Below are positions 30,441 to 49,620 of a DNA stretch of 64,000 nucleotides, piece by piece. Location: the NCBI GenBank assembly GCA_031291035.1, contig JAISLI010000026.1, positions 4,537 to 68,536 of the forward strand, read 5' to 3'. Source of the stretch: Desulfovibrio sp. Its GTDB lineage: Bacteria > Desulfobacterota > Desulfovibrionia > Desulfovibrionales > Desulfovibrionaceae. Each line of letters starts with the position of its first letter. Position 1 is the first letter of the stretch. Below the pieces are notes generated by a model. The model saw nothing but the letters and a program-made list of their open reading frames with translations. It searched no databases and was not told the DNA's origin. Position numbers and translations under genes: made by a program.

Positions 30441-31601
30441 ATGCAAAAAACATTTTACGGCTATCGCCGCGACAACGGCCGGGTGGGCATCCGCAATCAC
30501 GTCGTCATTCTGCCTCTTGACGATCTCTCCAACGCCGCCTGCGAGGCCGTGGCCAACAACATCAAGGGTACGCTGGCCCTGCCGCACGCTTACGGCCGTC
30601 TGCAGTTCGGCGAGGACCTGGACCTGCATTTCCGCACGCTCATCGGCATGGGCTGCAACCCCAATGTGGCCGCCGTGGTGGTTATAGGCATTGAACCCGT
30701 ATGGACGCAACGCATTGTGGACGGCATAGCGAAAACCGGCAAGCCCGTCGCCGGCTTCGGCATTGAACAGCACGGCGATCTGGAAACCATCATGCGTGCT
30801 TCCCGGAAAGCCAAGGAATTCGTGCAATATGCCACGGAACTGCAACGCACGGAATGCAAGGTCAATGAACTGTGGGTCTCGTGCAAGTGCGGCGAATCCG
30901 ACACCACATCCGGCCTGGCATCCAACCCCACGGTGGGCAACGCCTTCGACAAACTCTGGGAGGCCGGCGCCACCACGGTATTCGGCGAAACGACGGAAAT
31001 CACGGGCGGGGAGCATCTGGTCATGGCCCGTTGCGCCACCGGGGAGGTCCGCGCCAAATTCAAATTCTTCTTTGACCGCTACGCCAAGGTGGTGGACGAT
31101 CACAAGGTGGACGACCTGTGCGACTCCCAGCCGACCAAGGGCAATATTGAAGGCGGCCTGACGACCATTGAGGAAAAGGCCCTCGGCAACGTGCAGAAAA
31201 TCGGCCGCAAGGCGCCCGTCATAGGCTGCCTGGACAAGGCGGAATCTCCCACGGGCCCCGGCCTCTGGTTTATGGATTCTTCCTCGGCGGCGGCGGAAAT
31301 GATCACCCTGGTCGCGGCGGCCGGTTTTGCGGTGCACTTCTTCCCCACCGGCCAGGGCAACATTATCGGCAATCCCGTTCTGCCGGTCATAAAACTTTCG
31401 GCGAACCCGCGCACCGTGCGCACCATGAGCGAGCATATCGACGTGGACGTTTCCGGCATTCTGCGTCGTGAAATAAATCTGGATCAGGCGGGGGACAAAC
31501 TGCTTGACATGATGTTCCGGACGTGCAATGGTCGAAACACATCGGCCGAAGCGCTCGGACACAGAGAATTCATCATGACGAAACTCTATGAAAGCGCGTA
31601 G
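30441..31601 (+). CDS. suyB: (2R)-sulfolactate sulfo-lyase beta subunit (UxaA family)
   Basis: [66 protein letters not shown]. Confidence 0.85.
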
Positions 31602-31620
31602 CCGGTTATTTCCTTATCCT

Positions 31621-31678
31621 CCACACCGCACTGCGCCGCGTGACCAGCAGGTGGTTGCGCGGTGTGGTGTGGTTTTTT
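31621..31678 (+). terminator. Possible terminator/stem-loop after suyB
   Basis: CCACACCGC...GCGGTGTGG then TTTTTT. Confidence 0.4.
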
Positions 31679-31776
31679 CATCTCCCGGCACATTCCATCC
31701 GGAGGCCGTTCGCCGGCCGGAATTCAAAGACAGCGCGCATCCGCCCGCCGTCTCAAGCCATTTACAAGGAGGTTCC

Positions 31777-32724
31777 ATGAAACGCCGTTTTCTCTCAACA
31801 CTCGTCCTGGCCGCATGCCTGATGCTGATCGCGGCTTTGCCGGCGCGGGCCGCCTACCCCGACAAACCCGTCACAATGATCATCGCGTTCACGGCCGGCG
31901 GTTCCAGCGACGTGCAGGCCCGCGTCATGGAAAAATACTGGAACAAGTACGTGCCCCGGCAGAAGTGGGTTTTTGTGTACAAGCCGGGAGCCGGCGGCGC
32001 CATCGGCTTCGGCGAGATCGCCATGGCCAGGAAGGACGGCTACACCATCGGGGGAATCAACATTCCCCATCTCGTCATCCAGGCCCTCACCCAGAAAGCC
32101 CAGTTCAAGGTGGACGATTTTGACTACATCTGTCAGGTGGTCAACGACCCCCAGTGCGTCGTGGTGCGCAAGGACAGCAAAATAAAAAGCGCGAAGGAGC
32201 TTTTTGAGTACGCCAGGGCCAATCCCGGCAAGCTCAAGGTCGGCCTTGTCGGTCCCAACAGCGGGCATCACCTGATGTATCTCGCCGCCAGGAAAAAACT
32301 CGGCTTTCCCGTCACGGAAGTGTTTTACAAGGGCGCGGCCGACCAGAACGCGGCCCTGCTCGGCGGGGAAGTGGACGCCATGTTCGGCAACCTGAACGAC
32401 GTCATGCGCAGTCTGGAGGAATTTAACATTCTGGCTCTTGCCGCCGAAAAGCGCAACGATTTTCTGCCGGACGTACCCACCCTGAAAGAACAGGGCTATG
32501 ACATTCTTTCGGACATACGCCGCGCCTTTGTGGCGCCTAGGGGCATTCCGGCGGCGGATCTGGCCTTTCTGCGCGAAACCTTCAAAAAAATCTGCATGGA
32601 TCCCGATTACCTGAAAGATATGAAAACCGCCGGCCAGCCCGCCGAATATCTGGACGGCGCGGCCCTGTACAAACACATGCAGTCTCTGGAGACGGAAATC
32701 AGAAACGCCTTCGTCAAAAAATAA
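31777..32724 (+). CDS. Tripartite tricarboxylate transporter substrate-binding protein (TctC/SlcH-like)
   Basis: Signal peptide, YPDKPV, AGGSSD, KPGAGGAIG, KDGYT; GGAGG RBS. Confidence 0.9.
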   Translation: MKRRFLSTLVLAACLMLIAALPARAAYPDKPVTMIIAFTAGGSSDVQARVMEKYWNKYVPRQKWVFVYKPGAGGAIGFGEIAMARKDGYTIGGINIPHLVIQALTQKAQFKVDDFDYICQVVNDPQCVVVRKDSKIKSAKELFEYARANPGKLKVGLVGPNSGHHLMYLAARKKLGFPVTEVFYKGAADQNAALLGGEVDAMFGNLNDVMRSLEEFNILALAAEKRNDFLPDVPTLKEQGYDILSDIRRAFVAPRGIPAADLAFLRETFKKICMDPDYLKDMKTAGQPAEYLDGAALYKHMQSLETEIRNAFVKK

Positions 32725-32754
32725 ACATCGACCGGCAGACCAATGATGTTCCGG

Positions 32755-32783
32755 TTGTCCGGCGGGCGCCGCCCGCCGGACAA
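32755..32783 (+). other. 12-bp perfect stem-loop after the binding-protein gene
   Basis: TTGTCCGGCGGG-CGCCG-CCCGCCGGACAA. Confidence 0.7.
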
Positions 32784-32826
32784 TGCGGACAGGCATTGCC
32801 TCGGCACACGCCTGGCGGAGAGCACA

Positions 32827-34824
32827 ATGAACGAATTCATTTTGACGGCTTTGGCAAACCTCTGTGATCCGGTCAACATTTTGCTGATGATCGGCGGACT
32901 TGCCGGAGGCATAATCATCGGCGCGCTGCCGGGGCTTACGGCCACCATGGGCGTGGCCCTCATGGTGCCCGTCACCTTTGCCATGGACGCGACCAGCGGC
33001 CTTGTCATGCTGGGGGCCATCTATGTCGGGGGCATTTACGGCGGTTCCAACTCCGCCTGTCTCATCTGCACGCCGGGGACGCCCTCTTCCGTCGCCACCA
33101 CCTTCGACGGCTGGCCCATGTGCCAGGCGGGCAAGGCTGACAAGGCACTGATGACTTCCCTTCTGTCCTCGTCCTTCGGCGGCATTGTGGGCACCTTTTT
33201 TCTGCTTTTTCTCGCGGCGCCCCTGGCGCGCGTGGCGCTCCAGTTCGGCGGGCCGGAAAACTTCTGGCTCTGTCTTTTCGGCCTTTCGTCCATTGCCGTC
33301 ATGTCTTCCGGCAACATATACAAGGGCCTTGTTTCCGGCGGCCTGGGCATGCTGGTGGCCACCATGGGCCTTGACCCGCACGTGGCCACGCCGCGCTTCA
33401 CCTTCGGCTATTATCCGCTGATTCAGGGCGTGGAAGTCATCCCCGCCATGATCGGCCTTTTTTCCATCTCCCAGGTTCTCTATCTCATCGGCAGCTACAA
33501 GCCCTTCATTGCGCAATACAATCCCACTCCCGGCGCGCTCGGCATTGTGGCGCGCGAATTGCTGGCAAAATGCAAGACGGTGCTGCTGCGCTCCTCGATC
33601 ATCGGCACGTTTGTGGGCATGCTGCCCGGCGCCGGCGGAGAAATAGCCTCCATCATCGCCTACAATGAAAGCAAACGCTGGGACAAACGGCCGGAGCGCT
33701 ACGGCACGGGCATCACGGAAGGCGTGGCCGCCAGCGAAAGCGCCAACAACGCCGTCATCGGCGGAGCGCTCATCCCCATGCTCACCCTGGGCATCCCCGG
33801 CAGCGCGGTGGCCGCCGTCATTCTCGGCGCGCTGCTGGCCAAGGGGATTCAGCCCGGCTTCAAGGTGTTCACGGTCACGGGGGATTTGGCCTACACGTTC
33901 ATCTTTTCCCAGTTCGCCGTGAATCTGCTCATGATTCCCGTCGGCCTGCTGCTCATCAGGCTGCTGGTCCGCCTGCTCAGCATACGCCTTACCTTTGTGG
34001 CCATCGGCATTGTGCTGCTTTCGGTCATCGGGTCGTACGCCATCCGCAACAGCATGCTGGATGTCTGGATTGCCCTGCTTTTCGGCATCCTCGGCTACTT
34101 CTGCAACAGGGTCAGACTGGACACCGGGGCAATGGCGCTCGGCATTATTCTGGGGCCGATGGTTGAAGAAAACTTCGGCAAATGCGTCAGCCTTGCCAAG
34201 GCCCCCGGCTCTTCGGTCATGCAGGTTTTTCTGGACAGCCCCATCGCGCTGGCGTTGATTTTTCTGACCCTGCTCTCCCTGTGCACGCCCTTTCTCATGA
34301 ATTTGCGCCGCCGGCGCGCCGTTGCGGAATCCGGCCTGCCCGTCCGGCCCGCGCTCACTAACAGGGCGGACTGGCTGAAAGACATGTTGTCCGGGCTTTT
34401 CGTCCTCCTGATTTCCGCGGTCTTTTTTACCCAGATGTACGAACTGGAGGATGTGGGCAGAAACTACGCCCTGCTGCTTCTGGCTTTCATTGTCCTGATG
34501 GGTCTCTGGCTCTGCTTTCAGGGCTTCAGAAAACGGCGCCTCCTGGTTGAGGGGCTTGCGTCCGGGGAAGAAGAGCCGGTCGCCATGCGCCGCGTGGCGA
34601 TTATCGTCGCCGCGTCCGCCGTGTACGCGGCCTTTATCCCCATTCTCGGCTTCTACCCGGCCAGCGCCTTTTTCCTCTGCCTTTCGGCCATAGTGTTGAA
34701 CGACACCGACAGTTCGCCCTACGTCGCCGCCTGCCTTCTGACGCTCATAATGTGTCTGGCCGTATGGCTTGTCTTTGCCATGCTGCTCGGCGTGCCCACG
34801 CCGGAAGGCATGCTGTTTCAATAA
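32827..34824 (+). CDS. TTT permease, TctA fused to C-terminal TctB
   Basis: GALPGL, YGGS, PGTPSSVATTFDG, PGAGG, ESANNA, LGIPGS; extra C-terminal 4-TM module with GFYPAS and VF..LLGVPTPEG. Confidence 0.87.
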   Translation: MNEFILTALANLCDPVNILLMIGGLAGGIIIGALPGLTATMGVALMVPVTFAMDATSGLVMLGAIYVGGIYGGSNSACLICTPGTPSSVATTFDGWPMCQAGKADKALMTSLLSSSFGGIVGTFFLLFLAAPLARVALQFGGPENFWLCLFGLSSIAVMSSGNIYKGLVSGGLGMLVATMGLDPHVATPRFTFGYYPLIQGVEVIPAMIGLFSISQVLYLIGSYKPFIAQYNPTPGALGIVARELLAKCKTVLLRSSIIGTFVGMLPGAGGEIASIIAYNESKRWDKRPERYGTGITEGVAASESANNAVIGGALIPMLTLGIPGSAVAAVILGALLAKGIQPGFKVFTVTGDLAYTFIFSQFAVNLLMIPVGLLLIRLLVRLLSIRLTFVAIGIVLLSVIGSYAIRNSMLDVWIALLFGILGYFCNRVRLDTGAMALGIILGPMVEENFGKCVSLAKAPGSSVMQVFLDSPIALALIFLTLLSLCTPFLMNLRRRRAVAESGLPVRPALTNRADWLKDMLSGLFVLLISAVFFTQMYELEDVGRNYALLLLAFIVLMGLWLCFQGFRKRRLLVEGLASGEEEPVAMRRVAIIVAASAVYAAFIPILGFYPASAFFLCLSAIVLNDTDSSPYVAACLLTLIMCLAVWLVFAMLLGVPTPEGMLFQ

Positions 34825-34851
34825 CCTGAACCGGTTGCCGGAGATTTTTCT

Positions 34852-35865
34852 GTGAACGGATTCTCCCCTCTTCTCCCTGTTGACGAACTGCGCGAACTCG
34901 CCCGGGACGCCTTCAAAGCGGCGCGGATTCCGGAGGCCGTGGCCGCGCTTCTGACAGATTTCCTGCTGTTGGCGGAACTGGACGGCATCCCTTCGCACGG
35001 CTTCTCCCGTCTCCCCTTTTATGCCGATCAGGCCCTGTCCGGCAAAGTTCGGGCCGACGCCACGCCGGTGCTGACAAATCCCAAACCGGCGGTGGTTCTG
35101 GCGGACGCGGGCAACGGATTTTCCTTTCCCGCGATACAGGCCGGGCTTGAGGCGGCGTTCGCGCGGACGGAAGATGAGGGGATATGCTCGCTGGCCGTCA
35201 GGCGCTCGCACCATTGCGGCGTTCTGGGGCACTTTGTGGAAAAAATTGCCGCCGGAGGTTTTGTGGGCCTTGCCTGCGCCAACACTCCGGCCGCCATTGC
35301 CCCGTGGGGAGGAACCAGGGGAGTTTTCGGCACAAATCCTCTGGCCTTTGCCTGTCCGCGCGCGCGCGGCGAACCTGTGGTGGTGGACCTTTCCCTGAGC
35401 GCCGTGGCGCGGGGCAAAATCATGCTGGCAAAACAGCGCGGGGAGAAGATACAGCCCGGCTGGGCGCTTGACCCGGAAGGCCGGGAAACCACTGATCCGG
35501 ACGCGGCGATGGCCGGCACCATGCAACCCCTAGGCGGGGCCAAGGGCGCGGCGCTCGCCCTGATGGTGGAACTGCTGGCCGCCACGCTCACCGGGGCCAA
35601 CCACGCCTCGGAGGCCAGCTCTCTTTTTGAGGCTCAAGGCCCGCCGCCGGGTATCGGACAATTTTTTCTGCTTATTGACCCGCGGCCATTCAACGCCGCT
35701 TTTCTCAACCGGGTGGAAGCGCTCTGCGCCGACATTCTGGAGCAGAAAAATACCCGACTGCCCGGCGCGCGCCGCCAGGAACAACGGCGAAAACGCTCCC
35801 GTGAAGGCTTGCGCCTGCCGGAAAACCTGCTGGCGGAATTGCGCCGCCGCGCCGCCGCCGCGTGA
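34852..35865 (+). CDS. comC: Ldh_2-family dehydrogenase, likely (2R)-3-sulfolactate dehydrogenase
   Basis: DGIPSHG, RSHHCG, FGTNPLAF, GGAKG; family clear, substrate inferred from suyAB context. Confidence 0.72.
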   Translation: MNGFSPLLPVDELRELARDAFKAARIPEAVAALLTDFLLLAELDGIPSHGFSRLPFYADQALSGKVRADATPVLTNPKPAVVLADAGNGFSFPAIQAGLEAAFARTEDEGICSLAVRRSHHCGVLGHFVEKIAAGGFVGLACANTPAAIAPWGGTRGVFGTNPLAFACPRARGEPVVVDLSLSAVARGKIMLAKQRGEKIQPGWALDPEGRETTDPDAAMAGTMQPLGGAKGAALALMVELLAATLTGANHASEASSLFEAQGPPPGIGQFFLLIDPRPFNAAFLNRVEALCADILEQKNTRLPGARRQEQRRKRSREGLRLPENLLAELRRRAAAA

Positions 35866-39801: not shown

Positions 39802-40152
39802 CGGGGCAGACGCATCTAAAAAAGTCTACAGAGTGGGGGCATGAACACCCCCACAGAAATTACTTTGGCAATTTTCCGAACCTTACCTGACCCGCGAGTG
39901 GAACGCACAAAGATACATAGTATTGAAATTATTATATTTATTGCTTTGTGTACAGACTTGTCGGGAGGTAATGGCTTTTATGACATGGAGGGTTATGCCC
40001 ATGCCCGAAAGAAATGGCTCCGTAAGCATATCGGCATGACGGACATTCCCAGCCACGACACGTTTAATCGTGTGTTTCAGGCTATTTCGCCAGCCTGTTT
40101 TGGGAAATGCCTCATGGAATTATCCCGCTGTTTGCGTGAGCAAGTAAGCGGT
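39802..40152 (+). mobile_element. ISAs1-family transposase remnant (5' part only)
   Basis: ORF 39841 reads LPDPRVERTKIH.....IFIALC..LSG...FYDME..A...W.....IPSHDTFNRVF; homology stops after about 104 codons, before the DDE core. Confidence 0.85.
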
Positions 40153-40160
40153 GATACACT

Positions 40161-40322
40161 TATAACGAGGTCGGCAACGCGATATACAGGCAAGCCCAAC
40201 TGTTGCGGGGAGAACGGGAGCGCGGGGACTGGAAAGAGTATCCGCAGCGCATGATCAATTACGCTTTCGGCGCGGCGGGCGACATCGACATTTCGAAGTT
40301 TGTTTGGGCGCGTAAGATTTGA
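40161..40322 (+). pseudogene. Orphan C-terminal fragment of an unidentified gene
   Basis: Open frame YNEVGNAIYRQAQLLRGERERGDWKEYPQRMINYAFGAAGDIDISKFVWARKI*, no start, cut by the IS remnant. Confidence 0.35.
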
Positions 40323-41658
40323 GAGAGGATATCATTTTATTCGCGAGTTCAATATGTTTTGGCAATGTCGAAAGTATGCCGAACGGAATCCAAACTCCTT
40401 CATTACTTGGCAAAGACAAATGATAAAGAGCAATCATAAATTTATTTGCAAAAAGCATTATTTCAATTCTTTCTCCAGAATTTACTGCCATTAATGAATT
40501 CTTACTGACCATATTTCTATTAAATTTATTGTGAAAAATTTGTTCATGCTTTATATTATATTCTGTATCAAGCCATAAATTAATTTTTTTAACTTTACCA
40601 TTGTCACGAAACTCATGTATTGCATCGATAAATAGATGGTCTTTTCCCCAAAGCGCATAATCAGGTTTAACCCAGTCAACCTCATAATTTAATTTATTAT
40701 TTATACAAATTTCATTAATTTTATTAATGGTCTTTTTAATATTATTATCCAAATAAATATTACCAAAAAAGGATTCAACTCCATTTATTGTTTTTTGAGT
40801 ATTTACAAAATGTTTCTCATTAATAAGATATTTAATAATATTAAATGAATTATTATTAATATATTTACCTAAATAATGAATACCGAATTCGGCTATAAAT
40901 TTATTTAAACCAATATTATTTTTATCAAATATAACAATACGCCTACTGTCATTAGGCATTTTAGAAGTAATTTCCTTATTGAGCATATTTTTGAAATCTT
41001 GGCTTAAATTATCAATACTTTCACTAAAATTTCTTATGATATTTCCATCACTGTTAAGTGCAAAAGAAACAGGAATATTAATATATCCACCTCCAACAGA
41101 TTCAATATCTTCAATAGAATAAACACTAAAGGATTTTTCACGAATTTTATCGGCTCGAGTTGATGCTATTTCAGGGTATTGCCTATGGAATGCATCTTCT
41201 GCATATTTTTTGCTATTACTAATATTATTTTCAGGAATTTCAAGTAATATTGAAGTATCAATCTTATTTAAGAGTGAGCATGGAGGTAAAAAAATAAAAG
41301 TAAAAAGCTCAAAAACAACAGTATATTGATGCCGTTCGATTTTATTTAATCTAGGGTATTTACCTCCTGTGTCCTGAAAACGCTCTAAGGCATATTTTGT
41401 TAAACTGATTGTTTCTCCATTTAAATCTAAAAATCCTTGACGATGTAAAGATTCAACAACAGAAATAACTTCATTCGGTGTAAAACCAAAATATTTCCTC
41501 AATGATGCTATTGATATATTATCACAAATATATATTAACTTTAAACAAAATTCGGTCACTGCAGGTAGACGCTCATCTAATGCAATATTTGCAGAAATGC
41601 GAAATTTTTCAACAGGCAAAGAATATGTAATATGGTTAAATTCTACTACATCAGTCAT
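40255..41658 (-). CDS. Partner protein of the kinase-helicase (MkoB-like; N-terminal winged-helix-like region)
   Basis: 467 aa AT-rich ORF starting 1 nt after the helicase stop; YFGFT..EV..V..L...GF pattern; no HxK(x4)D. Confidence 0.75.
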   Translation of the reverse strand: MTDVVEFNHITYSLPVEKFRISANIALDERLPAVTEFCLKLIYICDNISIASLRKYFGFTPNEVISVVESLHRQGFLDLNGETISLTKYALERFQDTGGKYPRLNKIERHQYTVVFELFTFIFLPPCSLLNKIDTSILLEIPENNISNSKKYAEDAFHRQYPEIASTRADKIREKSFSVYSIEDIESVGGGYINIPVSFALNSDGNIIRNFSESIDNLSQDFKNMLNKEITSKMPNDSRRIVIFDKNNIGLNKFIAEFGIHYLGKYINNNSFNIIKYLINEKHFVNTQKTINGVESFFGNIYLDNNIKKTINKINEICINNKLNYEVDWVKPDYALWGKDHLFIDAIHEFRDNGKVKKINLWLDTEYNIKHEQIFHNKFNRNMVSKNSLMAVNSGERIEIMLFANKFMIALYHLSLPSNEGVWIPFGILSTLPKHIELANKMISSLKSYAPKQTSKCRCRPPRRKRN

Positions 41659-44600
41659 TTATTTAATCCCCCTAAGGTTTTCTGCATCAAAAATATTCGC
41701 GCGACCGTCAGTAGTTAATTCTTGCACTTTACTAAAAACCTTGCCTAACGGTGTTGATGAATTATCACCACTCCACATTTTTGAAGAGCCTACAATGATC
41801 AGGCGTTCCATGGCGCGTGAAATTGCGACATTGATTCTGTTCGGGCTATCCAAAAAACCATATTCAAAATCTTTATTATTTCTGACAGTTGAGAGAATAA
41901 TAATTTTATTTTCTTTCCCTTGGTAACTGTCGACTGTACCTACCTTAATCAACCCCTCAAGCTCAATCAAAGATTCTTCTTGTGATTTCAATTCCTCAAT
42001 TATATCACATTGTTTACTATACATACTAATTATGCCTATAGGTATTTCATGCTCACGTAAATTATCCCGCAGATATTTTAGGAAGTCTGCTGACGTGGAA
42101 AATTGCTGTAGTAAATTAATGATCATTTTGGCTTCTTTTTGATTCCATTTATCTTTACCAGAACTCTGTTCAAATCCATCTTTTCCAAGAGAAGCTGTGT
42201 CTATCCATATAATTTGTTTATCCAAAGGACATGATAAATAATTAAAATATTGAGGTGGATTTCCTCTACCTGTATCTAATTTATCTCCATAAAAACATGT
42301 TGAAACAAGTTCTCCAATATCTGCTGCCATGCGATACTGTGTTGTTAGTGTTACTCCAACTTTTTTCCCATAAGCGGAATTAAATATTCGCTCAAAATCA
42401 CTGTTAAATAACGGTGATGTTTGTGATAACGAATATCGTCTGCAAATGATATCTTTAACTTCTTGAGGAAATGTAGGCAGAAGTTGAAGGTGGTCCCCGA
42501 CCATAAGAATTCGTTTGCCAGCCTGTATGGCAACTGCTATTTCGCTTGATGTAGCACGTCCCGCCTCATCAATGATAACCCAATCGAAAATATTTTGGAG
42601 GACACCCGTACCACGATACCCGATCCCAACAAGTGTCCCTGCAACAACCGTCCTAGATTTAGCAAGAAATTCTGCAAAGTTTGATTTGCGCGAGCCCAAA
42701 ATTCTGCCCCATTCCCCAGAGAGACGAATCAGCTTTTTTAGTCGATCAACCGCATCTTGTGAGTGAACACCGTACTTGTTCATCAGCTCTTCTTCGAGCC
42801 TCTTGATTGTATCAATTAGAGAAAAATCTTTAGATAATCCATAATCATTTACGGAAATATCATAAAAAGCTTCAGTGTTTGATTTAATATGAGATTCAAG
42901 TAGATTTATATTGTTAGTATTGTCAGATTTACGTGATTCTAATTCATTAATATGCTCATAAATTGTAAAAAGTCTATGATAGATATCAATAAAATCGATA
43001 ATAAATTTTTTAGGGAGGCCTAAGTGTAGTACGACATCAATAATTCTTTCTTTTTGCTCTGCTTTGAATAATTCACGGTAAGATTGCTCAATGGATATTG
43101 CATGCAAATTATATATTTCTAAAGATGATCTAGATTCATCCCCCAGACGTACAGCGTTAAATTGTTCACCTTTACCTCGGCAAATTTCTTGGCTCTTTCC
43201 CAAGGCATTATTGACAGCTTCATGTGTTTGACTAACTAACAAAATATGACGAGCTTTTTCATGCTTCATCAAGTAATGCAGGAGGGTAGCAATAAACCAT
43301 GTTTTACCAGTTCCAGGTGGCCCTTGAACTAGGCTGATAGGCCCATTACTAAGTACCTTATTAAATGCCTTTCTCTGACTATTATTTAGTTGCCTACCGC
43401 CTTCAGAGTAGGAATCGAGCGTATCCTCCGTTGAAGCAATATGTTCCATAGGTTTATGCGCAGTTTTAGGTTCAAAGTATTCAACAAGATCAGGGATTAA
43501 TGCCTTTCCATCAAGTATATGTTGCATCGCGGATTGGCGTCGACTAAAAGACGCTATTTGTAGTGTACTTCTAAGCTGGAGTTGGCTGTCACGCGAAAGA
43601 TTTACGCGAGCATCAAAATCATCAATGACGAGTTGTTCTACCAATCCCTCTGGAGTATCTTTACGTTCTTTTAAATTAAGTATACCACAACGGCGCCAGT
43701 CATCTTTATCCTTCGTCTGACTAAAAACTAAGACTGTATCGGAATCCTGAAACTCATTAACCCATTTGTGACATTGCAATATAACCTGTTTGTCCTTTCT
43801 TTTTATACGTTTTATAATCCTAACTGTTACAAATGATGCTTCTTCAGCTTTAATTAATTCATTCCATAATTCTGAAATTGAGACATGTATTTCATTTGAA
43901 TAATCTTCTGTATCTATTTTTATTTCATCAAAACTATCTTTATGGTTTGAGACCCCGTATATTTTATCATGAATTGTTTTATTTGTTAATAAATATTGAA
44001 TTAAATCATCTATTGAGTCATCTTTATCTTTTAATATGTCAATATATAATGGAATATGCATATCTTTCCGTCTTTGTGATTCAAATAATAAATTTTGAGG
44101 TATTTTTTTAGAAGTTAATTTATTAGTTTTTTGTTTAATAAAATTCCATGAGCAATATAATCTTCTGTCAATTCCAGTTATTGTAAACATAATACTATTT
44201 TCAAAATTTTTATCTTTATTGACTTCAACATAAAAATTACCATTAACTTGACGCATTTTAAATGATTTTTCTTCAATATTCTTCAATTTAACAGTAAATT
44301 TGGGTATTTCTTGAGTTTCAACTTTTGTAGCAGCCACAACTGCGCGAGACAATGGTTCTAGGCTTGACAGCGTATTAGCTTCTAAAAGATTAGAAATTTC
44401 TTTATAGATTTGTGGAATTGGATATATCCCTGTTTCTGGGTTTTCTATTGTACTGGAATAGCCAAGAATATCTTTTAAAATAGCTGCAATACTATATCTA
44501 TCGCGCTCGATCTGGCTTAATGATTTATAATTATCTGGTAAATATGCCGTTGTGTATTGATCATTTGTATTAATGCGAAAATCAAGAATATCAATTAATA

Positions 44601-46479
44601 TAGCAATATCGTCATCTTTAATGATAATGTTTTGTGGGTGTAAATCTCCATGTGCTAGTTCTAGCACATGGATACGTTCAATTGTATCAATTATGGAATG
44701 GGATAAAATTAGGCGTTTCTCAAAAGAAGGGTTTGTATTAAGCCAATCAGTTAGATTTTTACCTTCTACCCATTCCAGCACAAGCAATAAGCTACGTCGA
44801 GAAAGGCCAAAATCGTATATTTTTGGCAGGCCTGAAATATCACAGGATTTAATATCCCTTGCTCGCTCAAGGAAGGATAGAAGGTGTCTCGCTTGGTCTG
44901 GGTTCTTGTCATCTAGGCTAATTCCATACCACACTTTAACAAGTTTCGTTCCGTCAGTTGTTCTAAAAAATAGAGCGTCATTGCTATCTTCGATGGTGTC
45001 GATATACTCATAGTCCCGTTCACGGGTAACTGCCTCAAAGGCGGCAAACATTGTAGGGTCAATAATCTGTGCTTGCTTACGATCATCGGTTGCGGCATTA
45101 AAGGCTTCAAGCATTTCACGAGCATTTTGGAAACTTTTTCCTGGGTCTGAGTTCAATGCTTTGGCAAAAAATACATCCAAATCGCCGTGTAATGGCTCTT
45201 CCGCCCTAGCACTCCACTCAAAAATACCGCGTGGTTTTGGGGGGGCTTCGCCGTACAGTAAAAGATATACGACAACACCTAGCATAAAGACATCCTGCTC
45301 ATATGGTGTTGCAGATGGTGGGTATATACTCTGCTCTACCTTGATTTTTTTACTTAATGCCCCAACCGTTTGCATTGTAGGAAAGTCTGCCGCCTGGAAA
45401 CCTGACATAACAATTTTTGCTGGGAGGTCAAGCCACAGACTATGTTGTCCAATATCGCGATGTGCTATTTTTAAATCATGCAAATCTGCAAAGCGTGAGA
45501 GTAGTGTTTTAATAAGAAGAAGACGATCTTCTTGAGACAGACCCGCAAGTTTACGTGGAAATTCCTCTAAGCGTGTTATTTTATTAGGAAGAAAATAAAT
45601 TTCTTGGAAATTAATTGTTACATCATTTTCTACGTTCCGTGTTACTGGACGTAACAAGCTGCTGAGCAATTCCTCATTTATTGCTTCTACATGTTCAAAG
45701 ATACGTTGTTCACGTAAACCAATAAATGCACGATCTTTTTCGCCAATTAACTCAACTCCTGGTGCGTTAAAATTCCATGCTCTTAGTAACGCCAGCTTTT
45801 TAAAATCATCTTTTGCGTACGCTTTAAATTCTTTATAAAGTTCTTTTGGATGTTCAAAAATCGGGGAGTCACCAGGGCAAAAACCATTAATATAGTAGTT
45901 TTTTGGCTTAAAATTAGATCCTCTAAAAAATTTGTCGTAATCAACTAGATAGTTAAGTGGATTAATATTAGACTTAGACTGTTTAAAATAATCTTTATAA
46001 ATAGCATTATATCTCCAATTAAGTATATCTTTCATATTAAGAACATTCAGCTTTTCTTCATCAGGTAAAGTTATGGTTTCAATATCCCCATGAAGGACAA
46101 CATATGCATAAATGAAAGGGGTCATCTTCCGACCTAACTTCTGTGTCATTTTAGAAGCCAGTTTTTTTGCATTGAGGTTGGATTTTTTTACAGGAGAAGT
46201 ATCTTTACGCTCTCCATCGACATACCATTCCTGTCCGTCAGATTTAAGCACCTTACCGTGCCAGTTTTTAAGCTCAATGACAACTATGTTTGTATGTGTA
46301 ATCAAAACAAGGTCAAAATCATCATCTCCAGCCCCGCGTTGTTGCCGAACTAGAGCGAATGACGCATAACCTTTCCAGTGTTTGCTGAATGGAGTACTAT
46401 CAAAAGCTTTCTTTATTTGTTGATGGGCCTCACGTTCAGCTTGAGGGACTCCATTTTGTTTTAATGGGACAATTTCCAT
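41659..46479 (-). CDS. NERD-kinase-kinase-SF1 (Upf1-like) helicase, MkoA-like defence protein
   Basis: NERD DFDLVLIT..IVVIELKNW; kinase 1 AHRDIG; kinase 2 LVK, HGDLHPQN; helicase QGPPGTGKT, IIDEAG, VGDHLQL, QYRM, TVDSYQGKE, NRINVAISRA. Confidence 0.9.
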   Translation of the reverse strand: MEIVPLKQNGVPQAEREAHQQIKKAFDSTPFSKHWKGYASFALVRQQRGAGDDDFDLVLITHTNIVVIELKNWHGKVLKSDGQEWYVDGERKDTSPVKKSNLNAKKLASKMTQKLGRKMTPFIYAYVVLHGDIETITLPDEEKLNVLNMKDILNWRYNAIYKDYFKQSKSNINPLNYLVDYDKFFRGSNFKPKNYYINGFCPGDSPIFEHPKELYKEFKAYAKDDFKKLALLRAWNFNAPGVELIGEKDRAFIGLREQRIFEHVEAINEELLSSLLRPVTRNVENDVTINFQEIYFLPNKITRLEEFPRKLAGLSQEDRLLLIKTLLSRFADLHDLKIAHRDIGQHSLWLDLPAKIVMSGFQAADFPTMQTVGALSKKIKVEQSIYPPSATPYEQDVFMLGVVVYLLLYGEAPPKPRGIFEWSARAEEPLHGDLDVFFAKALNSDPGKSFQNAREMLEAFNAATDDRKQAQIIDPTMFAAFEAVTRERDYEYIDTIEDSNDALFFRTTDGTKLVKVWYGISLDDKNPDQARHLLSFLERARDIKSCDISGLPKIYDFGLSRRSLLLVLEWVEGKNLTDWLNTNPSFEKRLILSHSIIDTIERIHVLELAHGDLHPQNIIIKDDDIAILIDILDFRINTNDQYTTAYLPDNYKSLSQIERDRYSIAAILKDILGYSSTIENPETGIYPIPQIYKEISNLLEANTLSSLEPLSRAVVAATKVETQEIPKFTVKLKNIEEKSFKMRQVNGNFYVEVNKDKNFENSIMFTITGIDRRLYCSWNFIKQKTNKLTSKKIPQNLLFESQRRKDMHIPLYIDILKDKDDSIDDLIQYLLTNKTIHDKIYGVSNHKDSFDEIKIDTEDYSNEIHVSISELWNELIKAEEASFVTVRIIKRIKRKDKQVILQCHKWVNEFQDSDTVLVFSQTKDKDDWRRCGILNLKERKDTPEGLVEQLVIDDFDARVNLSRDSQLQLRSTLQIASFSRRQSAMQHILDGKALIPDLVEYFEPKTAHKPMEHIASTEDTLDSYSEGGRQLNNSQRKAFNKVLSNGPISLVQGPPGTGKTWFIATLLHYLMKHEKARHILLVSQTHEAVNNALGKSQEICRGKGEQFNAVRLGDESRSSLEIYNLHAISIEQSYRELFKAEQKERIIDVVLHLGLPKKFIIDFIDIYHRLFTIYEHINELESRKSDNTNNINLLESHIKSNTEAFYDISVNDYGLSKDFSLIDTIKRLEEELMNKYGVHSQDAVDRLKKLIRLSGEWGRILGSRKSNFAEFLAKSRTVVAGTLVGIGYRGTGVLQNIFDWVIIDEAGRATSSEIAVAIQAGKRILMVGDHLQLLPTFPQEVKDIICRRYSLSQTSPLFNSDFERIFNSAYGKKVGVTLTTQYRMAADIGELVSTCFYGDKLDTGRGNPPQYFNYLSCPLDKQIIWIDTASLGKDGFEQSSGKDKWNQKEAKMIINLLQQFSTSADFLKYLRDNLREHEIPIGIISMYSKQCDIIEELKSQEESLIELEGLIKVGTVDSYQGKENKIIILSTVRNNKDFEYGFLDSPNRINVAISRAMERLIIVGSSKMWSGDNSSTPLGKVFSKVQELTTDGRANIFDAENLRGIK

Positions 46480-46634
46480 TTTTTCCTCAGATAGCTTTGC
46501 AAATTTAACATAAACATAATTAAAACACGATGTTAAATAACAGTAACAACGACTGTGGGTATTGTAAATATAAATCTGGCAAATGACAAGAGTACGTCAA
46601 AACGTAATATATTGGCACAGTTCGCTTCAAGCTG

Positions 46635-47312
46635 GTGCCGGTTTTTCCCGCTGAAAAGCGCGAAAGATACGTCCCTTCTGATGATGACGTTGTGAAGGTT
46701 ATTCTTTTGGCGAAGGGACAAGACTTGGTAATGTTGATGTTGTTTTACTACACAGGTGCGAGGGCGGGCGAAGTTTTTCGGCTGAAATGGGATGACATTG
46801 ATTTTCCCGGAAACAGAATCCGCCTGATCGACCACAAGACGAAAGGCGGCGGCAAGCGGGAGAGATGGCTTCCCTTGCATTCAGAACTTGTGAAAGCTCT
46901 TCTCTGGTGGCAGGCGGAGCGGCCATGCCGCGCGGAACCGGTTTTCTTCCAGACGGAAAACAAAACGCACTTGGGAGAACCGTTCACGCACAGAAGCCAT
47001 TTTATGCCGGCACTTTGCAGACGTGCCGGTGTAAAGCCCTTTGGTTTTTATTCCTTGCGGCACAAGAGTGCAACCATTGCTTTTTCGACTCAAGGCTTGG
47101 GCGCGGCTCAAATGCTGATGGGGCATTACCGGGCAACGACTACAGACGGATACATCAAGAGTTTCGGGCAATACGCGGATCGCGTTACCGTAGTTGATGC
47201 TTTGGCAGGTTGTACTGTAGGATTGGCTTTAGGCAACCATTTCGATGAAATGGCAATGCCTCAGAAGAAGCAATCTTCTGAGGCATTTTGTAAATCGGCA
47301 CTTGTAAATTAG
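46635..47312 (+). pseudogene. Tyrosine integrase, catalytic domain only (N-terminus missing)
   Basis: YTGARAGE, KTK, FYSLRH, LMGH, TDGY; in-frame stop at 46605; points at the tRNA-Glu 3' end. Confidence 0.85.
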
Positions 47313-47355: not shown

Positions 47356-47432
47356 TGGCGTCCCCAAGCGGATTCGAACCGCTGTTGACGGCGTGAAAGG
47401 CCGTTGTCCTGGGCCGACTAGACGATGGGGAC
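47356..47432 (-). tRNA. tRNA-Glu (TTC)
   Basis: GTCCCCA acceptor, anticodon arm ACGGC-CTTTCAC-GCCGT, GTTCGAATC, encoded CCA. Confidence 0.97.
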
Positions 47433-47455: not shown

Positions 47456-47530
47456 TGGCTGGGCTGCTAGGACTCGAACCTAGATTAGCGGAGCCAGAAT
47501 CCGCCGTCCTGCCAATTGAACGACAACCCA
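47456..47530 (-). tRNA. tRNA-Gln (CTG)
   Basis: Anticodon arm GCGGA-TTCTGGC-TCCGC, GGTTCGAGTCC, encoded CCA. Confidence 0.97.
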
Positions 47531-47746: not shown

Positions 47747-47936
47747 CCTAGAGAATTTTGCTATTGAAAATATCTACAGCTTTCAAGCCACCCCCGCGCG
47801 TTTGAAGGCGTTATGCATTCGAAAACTTCCTTGACTGCTATGCTTCTACAGCCCTTTCTCGAGTGTCTTTGCTTGCTATTGACATGCAGGTATTCTAAAT
47901 AAATTTTAGATAATTTCAATAGCAAATTGCTCTAGG
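47747..47936. mobile_element. 190-bp MITE with 25-bp terminal inverted repeats
   Basis: CCTAGAGAATTTTGCTATTGAAAAT vs AATTTCAATAGCAAATTGCTCTAGG (22/25 match as inverted repeats); CTAG at both ends; AT-rich non-coding interior. Confidence 0.8.
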
Positions 47937-49620
47937 GCCTGCTCTGACGCGATTCCTCCGGAGCGTCCGGCGCGGCTACAGGTTTCGCCGGCGCGTCGGC
48001 CCGCTCCGGCTGTTCCGGCTTTGGCGCGGCTTCCCGCCCCGCGCCTGCTTCCGCGGGAGCGGGAGCGCCCTGTTCCCGCGACAGGGCCTTTTTTTCAGGT
48101 CCGTCCCGCCGCCACAACATACTGCCATAGTTGAGGCAGAACCGGGGTTCAAGCCACAACATGACCGGCTGGGCCAGAGCGGCCGCCAGCAGAGTACATG
48201 CGAGCAGGGAACCGGCGGGTTTTGCCAGATTTGTGAAACGGACAAGAATGAAGGCCGCCGCCAGGCAACAGAGTCCAATCCCCGGCAAGGCCATATCCCC
48301 CGAGAGTTCGGGCGGCAAGGCCATGTTGAAGGTCCGCGCGAGCCAGTCCCCCGAATGGCTGAAACTCAACGCCGTCATCCCCGCAGCCGAAACAAGCAGA
48401 CAGAGAACCACAAACGAATAGAAAAACCGGCTGCCGAAATTCGAAAGGCGCAACAGGGCCTTGCCCAGAAGGAGGGCCGCCAGGGCGCAGAGCGTTATAC
48501 CCGGTCCGGCGGGGCCGGACGCGAGCGGGGCCAGCAGCGCGGCGCAGGCGAGAGCAATCCAGACAAAAGCGGCTCCGGCACGCTCCGCCCGCGCCACTTT
48601 GAGGGTTGTTGCCGCCTCGCGGGCCACACGGGTCCAGGAGACAAAAACGACAAGGGCCAACCAGGGCAAAAGCCCCAAAAGGGCCGCGCCGGCATCAGGC
48701 AAGGCGCGCCGTCGGAAATCCGCCCCCGTATTTCCCAAAGGCAAAAGGTCGGCGCGCAGGCGCCGGAAATATTCGTCGGCATTTCCCCAGAGCATCACAG
48801 CGCCGAGCCAGGCCGCGATCAACGCAAGGCACAAGGCAAAGCCGAACACGGCGTCGAACTTTTGCGCGCGCTGAACGCGGCCGAGCCAGCAAAGAAAAAC
48901 CAATGATCCCAAAAAAGGCAGAAGCAGATAGTACGGCCCCCCCGTAAGGGCGGCCAGCGCGGCGAGCAGACAACCCGAGGGGACGGCAAGGCCGGACGCC
49001 TCCCTTTGCCAACCTCGGCAAAAACAGCAAAGGGAAAACAGGGTCAGCGCGACCGCCAAAATTTCCGGCCCGGTAAAATTTGCGAGCAGCGCGGAAACCG
49101 GCGCGCAAAGCAATATCAGACCGGCCGACAGCGCCGCGCGCGGGCCGAGACGGGCTGCGAGGCCCAAACACCAGACGCCCAGCAGCGTCAGGAGTGCGCA
49201 AAAAGCGCTCAGCCCCGCGAGCAGCGCCGGGAAGGCGGTTATTTCGCCAAAGTATCCCGCGCATTTCAGAATGATTGTAAAAAGGGCGGAAAAACCCGGC
49301 CATTGGGCCACCCCTCCGGCGGAAGGGGCCGGCCAGGCTCCCTGTTCCATGACATGCCGCAAAATTCGGCCGCTCTCCGGATCAGACGGGAAACAGGGCG
49401 TCCTGCCCAAAAATGCCGGCCAGACATACAGCGCGAACACACAGATCAGAAGCAGCGGCCCCAGGCGGCTTGCTCCCTCAAAGCATTGTTGCAGCCGGCC
49501 ATCCCTTGCCGACGAATCGCATCCAGCCTCCCCGGCTTCCGCGGCATCCGCGATTTCCGCGACAGAAACATTTTCATTTTCGGCGGTTCCGGGCCTCGCG
49601 TCCGGGGCATTTTCTCCCAT
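47932..49620 (-). CDS. Polytopic membrane protein, ArnT/GT39-like
   Basis: Many TM helices; AALTGGP, PWLAL patterns. Confidence 0.55.
   Translation of the reverse strand: MGENAPDARPGTAENENVSVAEIADAAEAGEAGCDSSARDGRLQQCFEGASRLGPLLLICVFALYVWPAFLGRTPCFPSDPESGRILRHVMEQGAWPAPSAGGVAQWPGFSALFTIILKCAGYFGEITAFPALLAGLSAFCALLTLLGVWCLGLAARLGPRAALSAGLILLCAPVSALLANFTGPEILAVALTLFSLCCFCRGWQREASGLAVPSGCLLAALAALTGGPYYLLLPFLGSLVFLCWLGRVQRAQKFDAVFGFALCLALIAAWLGAVMLWGNADEYFRRLRADLLPLGNTGADFRRRALPDAGAALLGLLPWLALVVFVSWTRVAREAATTLKVARAERAGAAFVWIALACAALLAPLASGPAGPGITLCALAALLLGKALLRLSNFGSRFFYSFVVLCLLVSAAGMTALSFSHSGDWLARTFNMALPPELSGDMALPGIGLCCLAAAFILVRFTNLAKPAGSLLACTLLAAALAQPVMLWLEPRFCLNYGSMLWRRDGPEKKALSREQGAPAPAEAGAGREAAPKPEQPERADAPAKPVAAPDAPEESRQSRP

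Follow-up and report, generated by a model that had tools for sequence, protein, structure and literature searches.

Type I Mokosh anti-phage systems were described by Millman et al. (2022) as consisting of one gene that encodes a kinase joined to an Upf1-like helicase and a second gene that encodes a protein with helix-turn-helix (HTH) and phospholipase D (PLD) features. Among the constructs tested in that study two type I systems are listed as verified, namely the one from E. coli ETEC H10407, with a MkoA of 1215 amino acids and a MkoB of 602 amino acids labelled 'HTH-PLD', and SG199 from E. coli SEC470, with a MkoA of 1652 amino acids and a MkoB of 478 amino acids labelled 'HTH'. Mutants of the helicase ATP-binding site and of the PLD active site abolish Mokosh defence. 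Mokosh is among the commoner recently described defence systems. Here, we analyzed a stretch of 64,000 nucleotides of Desulfovibrio sp. (contig JAISLI010000026.1, termed the window in the following), which, judged from its sequence, almost certainly carries the mkoA-mkoB pair of a type I Mokosh system in its long form. The best explanation that we can offer for this locus, with a probability of roughly 0.55, is a long-form Mokosh mkoAB pair that was acquired horizontally and in which a NERD domain contained in MkoA would provide the output.

The mkoA gene is located on the minus strand (41659–46479) and constitutes a single uninterrupted open reading frame (ORF) of 1606 codons. When compared to the PADLOC model for long MkoA proteins (PDLC03921), residues 1–1604 correspond to model positions 1–1605 of 1607 with a score of 1571.7 bits. 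The product of the downstream gene mkoB, which encodes 467 amino acids on the same strand (40255–41658), matches the PADLOC model for MkoB (PDLC03923) at 6.2e-84, and the start of mkoB (41658) directly abuts the stop of mkoA (41659). From its N- to its C-terminus, MkoA comprises a NERD domain, a pseudokinase, a second kinase domain (kinase 2), a small beta-rich linker and an Upf1-like superfamily 1 (SF1) helicase. A sequence-only reading of positions 43700–46479, which equal residues 1–927 of the 1606 residues of MkoA, had proposed that a PglW-like front end composed of NERD, pseudokinase and kinase precedes an Upf1-like helicase. It thereby captured the architecture of the protein but missed its Mokosh identity and the obligate partner gene mkoB, the product of which acts as the PLD nuclease effector according to the canonical Mokosh model.

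MkoA of the window is no new kind of protein, but a divergent member of a catalogued and experimentally verified defence family. The N-terminus of SEC470 MkoA contains the motifs EFDLVIVTH..VELKDW, ALLRVWNF, IAHRDVADHSLW and LSNF, is 91% identical to a homologue on an E. coli plasmid (L002) and aligns with residues 35–377 of the window protein at 34% identity (E 3e-58), collinearly over the NERD domain and kinase 1. Since the N-terminus of SEC470 MkoA thus carries the motifs of both domains, the long architecture had already been verified as anti-phage, though under the label 'Kinase-Helicase'. Both systems share the two-gene operon, the domain order, a MkoB with a winged helix-turn-helix (wHTH) and no HKD motif, and matches to the hidden Markov models over their full length; the window system differs in that it is only about 32–34% identical, has a GC content of 34% and possesses a truncated MkoB tail. 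The system for which protection against phages has been shown is the homologous one of SEC470, with 32–34% identity to that of the window. The NERD domain, the conserved pseudokinase and the PLD-like partner without HKD are not apparent from the published labels 'Kinase-Helicase' and 'HTH'. A table in a 2023 review lists a NERD domain for Mokosh type I, and nowhere in the literature that we searched is Mokosh mentioned together with a pseudokinase or PglW.

The protein database contains 165 relatives of MkoA at E ≤ 1e-10, and the best 120 of these are nearly all of about 1.6 thousand amino acids, 42–55% identical to the window protein and mostly from Betaproteobacteria, with Cupriavidus, Caballeronia, Methylobacillus, Rubrivivax and Laribacter among the genera. 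No protein that we found is more than 55% identical to MkoA of the window. Using tblastn, relatives were detected on 229 plasmids in Acinetobacter, Pseudomonas, Ralstonia and Enterobacteriaceae; 102 of them are of full length with about 28–34% identity. The cassette itself had no megablast match among plasmids. When species-representative genomes were scanned, 29 loci were obtained, and a search with the NERD domain and kinase 1 among 1.84 billion cluster representatives returned 139 clusters at E ≤ 1e-30, while 103 of the best 150 clusters are 1538–1841 amino acids long. In all eight long-form loci that we inspected, the next gene encodes a 'hypothetical protein' of 468–523 amino acids matching PDLC03923, usually with an overlap of a few bases with mkoA, and the pairing of mkoA and mkoB recurs in 26 further genome loci. 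Residue conservation in MkoA is given in the following for 118 full-length homologues with 42–55% identity to the window protein.

The NERD domain, a domain of the PD-(D/E)xK type, comprises residues 15–129 (46093–46437, minus strand) and is recognized by Pfam (2.5e-12) as well as by the PADLOC PglW model (model positions 17–169, 2.3e-17). In the AlphaFold2 model its core adopts an alpha-beta-beta-beta arrangement. The motifs DDDFD (residues 52–56) and IELK (residues 68–71) provide the candidate catalytic residues D56, E69 and K71, which are complemented by E15. E69 and K71 are invariant (118/118), D54 and D56 are conserved in 117 and E15 in 116 homologues. The plasmid relatives, at about 30% identity, retain E15, D56 and the (E/D)xK motif, and D54 is variable among them. 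Hence, the acidic and ExK catalytic-type residues that the sequence-only reading had pointed out are not only present but nearly invariant in the family.

The first kinase-fold domain (residues ~196–470; 45070–45894, minus strand) was not detected by a Pfam scan of MkoA, but is supported by the NCBIfam model of MAD6 (residues 40–471, 8.6e-32, below the family cutoff like the NCBIfam matches of MkoA to PglW and to the IGHMBP2 family), by positions 294–437 of the PADLOC PglW model, by phmmer and by the AlphaFold2 model. In the phmmer search its HRDIGQHS motif (residues 340–347) aligned to HFDLKPEN of DAPK2, and structures of CaMK kinases were also matched. By the classical definition, a pseudokinase has lost at least one of the beta3 lysine, the catalytic-loop aspartate or asparagine and the DFG aspartate. 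In kinase 1, R233 of the ALLRAW motif (residues 230–235) is located in a strand of the model (residues 229–235) at the position of the beta3 lysine and is invariant in the form ALLRxW. E257 and H340-R341-D342 are likewise invariant, so that the aspartate of the HRD motif is retained, and G344 and S347 occupy the positions of the catalytic-loop lysine and asparagine, neither of which is present in any of the 118 homologues. At the DFG position, which follows a model strand formed by residues 355–358, all 118 homologues carry S/T-G-F (S359-G-F, residues 359–361, in the window protein) and none carries the aspartate. We also considered K223 as the beta3 lysine, since it is invariant within the close MkoA family, but rejected it: it lies in the turn between beta2 and beta3 of the model and, unlike R233, is not kept in distant long-form relatives. 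Judged by its residues, kinase 1 hence qualifies as a classical pseudokinase throughout the family, although it might catalyse in a non-canonical manner, and the impression of an inactive kinase, which had been drawn from the arginine and the missing asparagine and DFG aspartate in a single protein, extends to 118 of 118 sequences. Given the strong constraint acting on it, kinase 1 probably serves a structural or allosteric function or binds a ligand.

Kinase 2 (residues ~484–700; 44380–45030, minus strand) is a minimal kinase domain resembling Bud32 and PD-T4-6, which is recognized by Pfam as Pkinase at residues 547–634 (2.4e-11) and matches mad6 and PD-T4-6 in PADLOC. Its motifs are LVK (residues 513–515), HGDLHPQN (residues 610–617) and LID (residues 628–630). 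K515 is a lysine in 115 homologues and an arginine in three, whereas E538, H610 and D612 of the H-G-D motif, N617, D630 and D633 are invariant. When aligned to a CDPK, HGDLHPQN is placed on HRDLKPEN and ILDF on IDFG, and the DFG-equivalent residue is therefore D633 of LDF and not D630 of LID, which had first been read as such. With this correction the catalytic set seen earlier stands, and kinase 2 is predicted to be active.

The beta-rich linker (residues ~720–865; 43885–44322, minus strand), with strands at residues 727–817 of the AlphaFold2 model, is a property of long-form MkoA only, and PADLOC matches residues 720–1020 exclusively to the long MkoA model. The remainder of the protein (residues 868–1606; 41659–43878, minus strand) forms the SF1 helicase, the Upf1-like nature of which is borne out by Pfam AAA_11 (residues 1030–1337, 1.9e-39) and AAA_12 (residues 1359–1566, 7.8e-44) and by the NCBIfam family of IGHMBP2/Upf1-type helicases (2.7e-49). 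Its Walker A motif GPPGTGKT (K1059) and Walker B motif DEAG (D1304-E1305) are intact and conserved. In PADLOC the helicase segment matches MkoA and MkoC, and the model for short MkoA proteins (PDLC03920) aligns from about residue 885 onward (6e-138). AlphaFold2 modelling was carried out for residues 1–1030 with 39 homologues and resulted in a mean predicted local distance difference test (pLDDT) score of 79.6. Residues 868–989 form a helix, a beta-barrel and a further helix in front of RecA1, i.e. an N-terminal stalk and a barrel similar to the 1B barrel of Upf1-like helicases. The combination of AlphaFold and Foldseek, which had been suggested as a check of the domain assignment, yielded a NERD core and two kinase folds; the best match in the Protein Data Bank (PDB) was a tandem duplication of kinase domains (9p9u, E 3e-13, 582 columns), with ordinary Ser/Thr kinases ranking next.

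MkoA was further compared to PglW and to other proteins with related domains. A triad of NERD domain, inactive kinase and active kinase has been described for PglW of BREX type 2 (PMC12839542), for which the sequence-only reading had named NERD plus tandem kinase domains, and also for some DndF proteins; in these proteins it is located at the N-terminus and is collinear with that of MkoA. The NERD domain and kinase 1 of MkoA follow PglW in the same order, and MkoA relatives align to PglW residues 33–488 at 1.8e-31. In PglW, the triad is followed by an RNA polymerase alpha-CTD-like domain, a set of three wHTH domains and an inactive STAND module, and BREX genes surround the pglW gene (PMC12839542), whereas an SF1 helicase follows in MkoA. 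MkoA is consequently not a PglW: with 59.9 bits, the NCBIfam BREX_PglW model stays below its cutoff of 990, and the match is confined to residues 15–153 (1e-16). No BREX genes are located near mkoAB, the neighbours of which comprise neuB, tRNAs and fragments of a transposase and an integrase. The likeness thus holds for the triad and not for the protein as a whole. Membership in MAD6 of the MADS system (NF047741) was rejected as well (110.4 bits, cutoff 460). Kinase 2 significantly matches the kinases MAD6, PD-T4-6 and Stk2, and for MAD6 this includes the NERD domain and kinase 1, but the scores remain below the family cutoffs and these proteins have no helicase. Membership in Nhi was likewise rejected, since no PADLOC model of Nhi or Nhi-like proteins matched the NERD or helicase segments at E ≤ 1e-3; in Nhi, a PD-(D/E)xK nuclease is fused directly to the SF1 helicase, whereas in MkoA both are separated by two kinase folds and a linker. 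Upf1 and the MOV10L1-Zucchini pair have the helicase family in common with MkoA (AAA_11, AAA_12, IGHMBP2) but lack NERD and kinase domains, and Zucchini keeps the catalytic motif that long-form MkoB has lost; an analogy between Mokosh and the piRNA pathway has already been published. Plant tandem kinase-pseudokinase immune receptors also combine an active and a degenerate kinase in one immune protein, which is an analogy only, as no specific homology exists beyond the kinase fold and the domain context differs.

In the short form of Mokosh (H10407; PDLC03920 and PDLC03922), the kinase 2, 1B barrel and helicase portions of MkoA and the N-terminal wHTH region of MkoB are homologous to those of the window proteins. 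The short form differs in that MkoA lacks the NERD domain and the pseudokinase and that a canonical HKD PLD domain (GSHAKIIVCD, HAKILVYD..SFNW) is often part of MkoB. The sequence of H10407 MkoB contains GSHAKIIVCD...GSCNW, and three of seven short-form partners (Arthrobacter, Nostoc, Streptomyces) carry a canonical HAK[IV]L..D...SFNW with a weak match to Pfam PLDc_2. With HKD in only three of seven partners, we rejected a strict rule by which the presence of NERD would imply loss of the HKD motif and its absence retention. The short-form partner of Mycobacterium marinum pRAW (L012, 6135–7988; 617 amino acids) bears an S1 RNA-binding domain at its C-terminus (2.8e-14) and lacks HKD, and because of the S1 domain at this position the C-terminal module of MkoB appears to be interchangeable.

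Millman et al. (2022) define Mokosh by a helicase and a PLD nuclease. All 67 homologues of the partner MkoB of the window are annotated as 'hypothetical' and have no Pfam domain, and a sequence-profile search against PDB chains gave chance matches only (E ≥ 0.38). In the structural model of MkoB (pLDDT 70), a winged helix at the N-terminus is joined to a C-terminal alpha/beta domain. Foldseek matched it to TrmBL2 (E 1e-4), an archaeal chromatin (DNA-binding) protein according to its PDB entry, to NucT (1e-3), and to FAM83 DUF1669, phospholipase D, vaccinia F13, Nuc and Zucchini. Of the HTH and PLD (HKD) features that define MkoB, the window protein thus possesses the wHTH and a predicted PLD-like fold, and the HKD motif is absent. 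No HxKxxxxD motif is found at the catalytic position in the nine paired long-form partners (that of the window and eight others) or in the 67 homologues, where the only match is spurious and lies within an acidic tail, and 25 of the 26 partners from the genome loci are without any match. The one match among the latter (L039) aligns elsewhere; it was rejected together with HxK..D matches in Moraxella MkoB and in the tail of P0149, all of which are located outside the position of the catalytic strand. In a MAFFT alignment the short-form THAKI (canonically THAKILVYD) is placed on ERIEI, GRVEL or GNVEI of long-form MkoB, such that the histidine is replaced by R, N or S and the lysine by the invariant E399, an assignment of moderate confidence that agrees with the labels 'HTH' and 'HTH-PLD' given by Millman et al. 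(2022). Since the verified SEC470 MkoB is labelled 'HTH' only, the PLD feature is not universal in the published Mokosh family either. The last 30–45 codons of mkoB, which are conserved in close homologues and encode a RYGGRAKF..FEEGCPFLxYS tail, are replaced by read-through into the GC-rich flank (..CRCRPPRRKRN*, 40255–40310). Every structured element as far as the last helix is kept, and MkoB of E. coli and Moraxella end at the same helix.

The loss of the HKD histidine and lysine from long-form MkoB leaves NERD as the only intact and invariant nuclease-type site in the pair. This lends indirect support to the suggestion of the sequence-only reading that NERD may be the nuclease effector, and we consider the chances that it is the principal one to be even or somewhat lower. 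Alternatively, in line with the canonical Mokosh model, MkoB could be the nuclease effector by means of a non-canonical PLD-like site, with NERD as an accessory that serves either as a back-up suicide nuclease or as a module binding DNA ends or structures. This fits the loss of defence in PLD-site mutants and agrees with the resemblance of the model to NucT, Nuc, Zucchini and PLD folds, with the conservation of H413 and E399 in the close MkoB family and with comparative papers that read the NERD domains of PglW and DndF as back-up effectors. It is at odds with the substitution of both HKD residues in long-form MkoB, with the variation of H413 across the class and with the absence of Pfam PLD from four diverse long-form MkoB proteins even at E ≤ 1; moreover, the best structural match is the DNA-binding TrmBL2, and Millman et al. 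(2022) assigned a PLD to H10407 MkoB and not to that of SEC470. We therefore regard an effector role of MkoB as unlikely.

PP2C phosphatase genes are present in two short-form Mokosh-like operons, on Sinorhizobium pWSM1115_3 (L009, 7482–8267) and on a Rhodoferax plasmid (L015, 34–2162), and in the latter the kinase has a gene of its own, which lies upstream of that for a helicase without a kinase. These genes hint at reversible phosphorylation as a part of Mokosh control. They also bear on a reading in which kinase 2 is the effector and phosphorylates host or phage proteins, causing abortive infection as in the case of Stk2 or PD-T4-6, while NERD and the helicase would only sense. The phosphatase genes point to phospho-signalling, kinase 2 is closest to the defence kinases PD-T4-6 and MAD6 and keeps all catalytic residues, and some short-form loci contain neither NERD nor HKD. 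Yet, invariance of the NERD catalytic-type residues down to about 30% identity would be unexpected for a pure binding module, and the HKD of canonical short-form MkoB is intact and required for defence. Hence, this second alternative appears improbable to us as well.

Taken as a long-form Mokosh system with NERD as its output, the window pair might function as follows. The Upf1-like SF1 helicase, together with the wHTH protein MkoB, would engage phage nucleic acid, be it RNA or a replication intermediate, at the expense of ATP. This engagement would alter the PglW-type regulatory pair, in which the degenerate kinase 1 might act as an allosteric or decoy partner and kinase 2 might autophosphorylate or phosphorylate targets, and the output would be nucleic-acid cleavage by the in-cis NERD PD-(D/E)xK domain. 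We infer all of these steps for the window locus, ATPase dependence being published for Mokosh systems, and gating by the pseudokinase/kinase pair is purely conjectural. As a tentative extension, which we consider less likely than not, the PLD of MkoB would have decayed to a non-catalytic module in the long form and the nuclease role would have moved to NERD, which would have arrived with the pseudokinase as part of a portable NERD/pseudokinase/kinase cassette common to BREX-2 PglW, some DndF proteins and MAD6. If true, this cassette would represent a reusable 'regulated nuclease' module for different sensors, which would be an SF1 helicase in the case of MkoA, an inactive STAND in that of PglW and a P-loop kinase in that of DndF. 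With NERD as the effector, the long form of Mokosh would depart mechanistically from the helicase-PLD (piRNA-like) picture and be linked to BREX-2 PglW, DndF and MADS via one common module.

Several points weigh against this explanation. A 2025 survey of nuclease-NTPase systems did not succeed in purifying Mokosh type I. Some short-form systems are devoid of both NERD and HKD, and their output may not be a nuclease or may stem from another effector. The PLD-like fold of the MkoB C-terminus is a medium-confidence prediction (pLDDT 70, Foldseek E ~1e-3, TM score ~0.5), and hhalign aligned long-form MkoB to canonical PLD MkoB over the N-terminal wHTH region only (Prob 23%), leaving the C-terminal domains unaligned; C-terminal homology of both forms therefore rests on the fold and the MAFFT alignment. 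MkoB may also possess a non-canonical active site, e.g. around H413, which is conserved in the close family. Finally, the window copy might be impaired, since mkoB has lost its conserved tail and the integrase and transposase of the surrounding island have decayed.

The cassette containing mkoAB (40300–46650) has a GC content of 34.3%, compared to 61.7% for the rest of the window. GC junctions are apparent at ~40300 and, on the integrase side, at ~46650–46700. There, the island is bordered by a 5'-truncated gene for a tyrosine integrase, which retains the catalytic domain only (46635–47312, plus strand; Pfam Phage_integrase, 1.2e-17). Next to it, ARAGORN detected a tRNA-Glu (UUC; 47356–47432, minus strand), the probable original integration target, which is adjoined by a tRNA-Gln (47456–47530). 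The other edge carries an N-terminal fragment of an ISAs1-type transposase (39841–40254, plus strand; Pfam DDE_Tnp_1_assoc, 4e-23). Given the GC contrast and the integrase, tRNA and insertion sequence remnants at the edges, mkoAB has recently entered the chromosome by horizontal transfer, as a low-GC cassette within an island that is linked to tRNA-Glu and has decayed. Judged from a flanking Ldh_2 protein, the host is Desulfovibrionaceae-like, whereas the relatives closest to MkoA, with 55% identity at most, are betaproteobacterial. We found no att-like direct repeats flanking the cassette and no other defence genes among the neighbours examined. In the closest named homologue, from Cupriavidus basilensis (CP163419.1, 716–7658), mkoAB directly follows genes for PIN_4, GmrSD, DUF4062/RloB-like and AAA_15/AAA_21 proteins, the setting of a typical defence island, whereas the copy in the window is isolated among housekeeping genes.

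In view of the truncated genes at both edges, the locus could also be a non-functional remnant in a decaying island, inactivated by the truncation of mkoB. The integrase has lost its 5' and the transposase its 3' part, the flank has replaced the 3' end of mkoB with its conserved tail, and no public sequencing runs are listed for the stretch. However, an ORF of 1606 codons with every catalytic motif intact in DNA of 34% GC speaks for recent function, and the structured elements of MkoB are complete, with the tail also being absent from MkoB of E. coli and Moraxella. We thus consider a remnant to be the least probable of the readings weighed here. For the genome itself, the practical result is a clean annotation of a two-gene defence islet beside tRNA-Glu.

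A weak promoter-like site (TTGTCA-17-TACAAT; 46561–46589, minus strand) is located about 80 nucleotides upstream of mkoA, but promoter- and terminator-like sites in the region are no commoner than in shuffled sequences. Just past the tRNAs, the window contains an Ala/Leu-rich, membrane-like ORF of 562 amino acids (47932–49620, minus strand) that has no Pfam match and an AT skew of up to +0.57, especially at 48200–49400. On the other side of the cassette, genes for TctC and a TctA-TctB fusion transporter adjoin a gene for an Ldh_2 protein (31588–35865). The latter, a sulfolactate dehydrogenase-like protein, is 83–87% identical to proteins from metagenome-assembled genomes of Desulfovibrio sp., and since the Joint Genome Institute (JGI) names its homologues (2R)-3-sulfolactate dehydrogenase, these genes may form a cluster for the uptake and oxidation of sulfolactate or organosulfonates.

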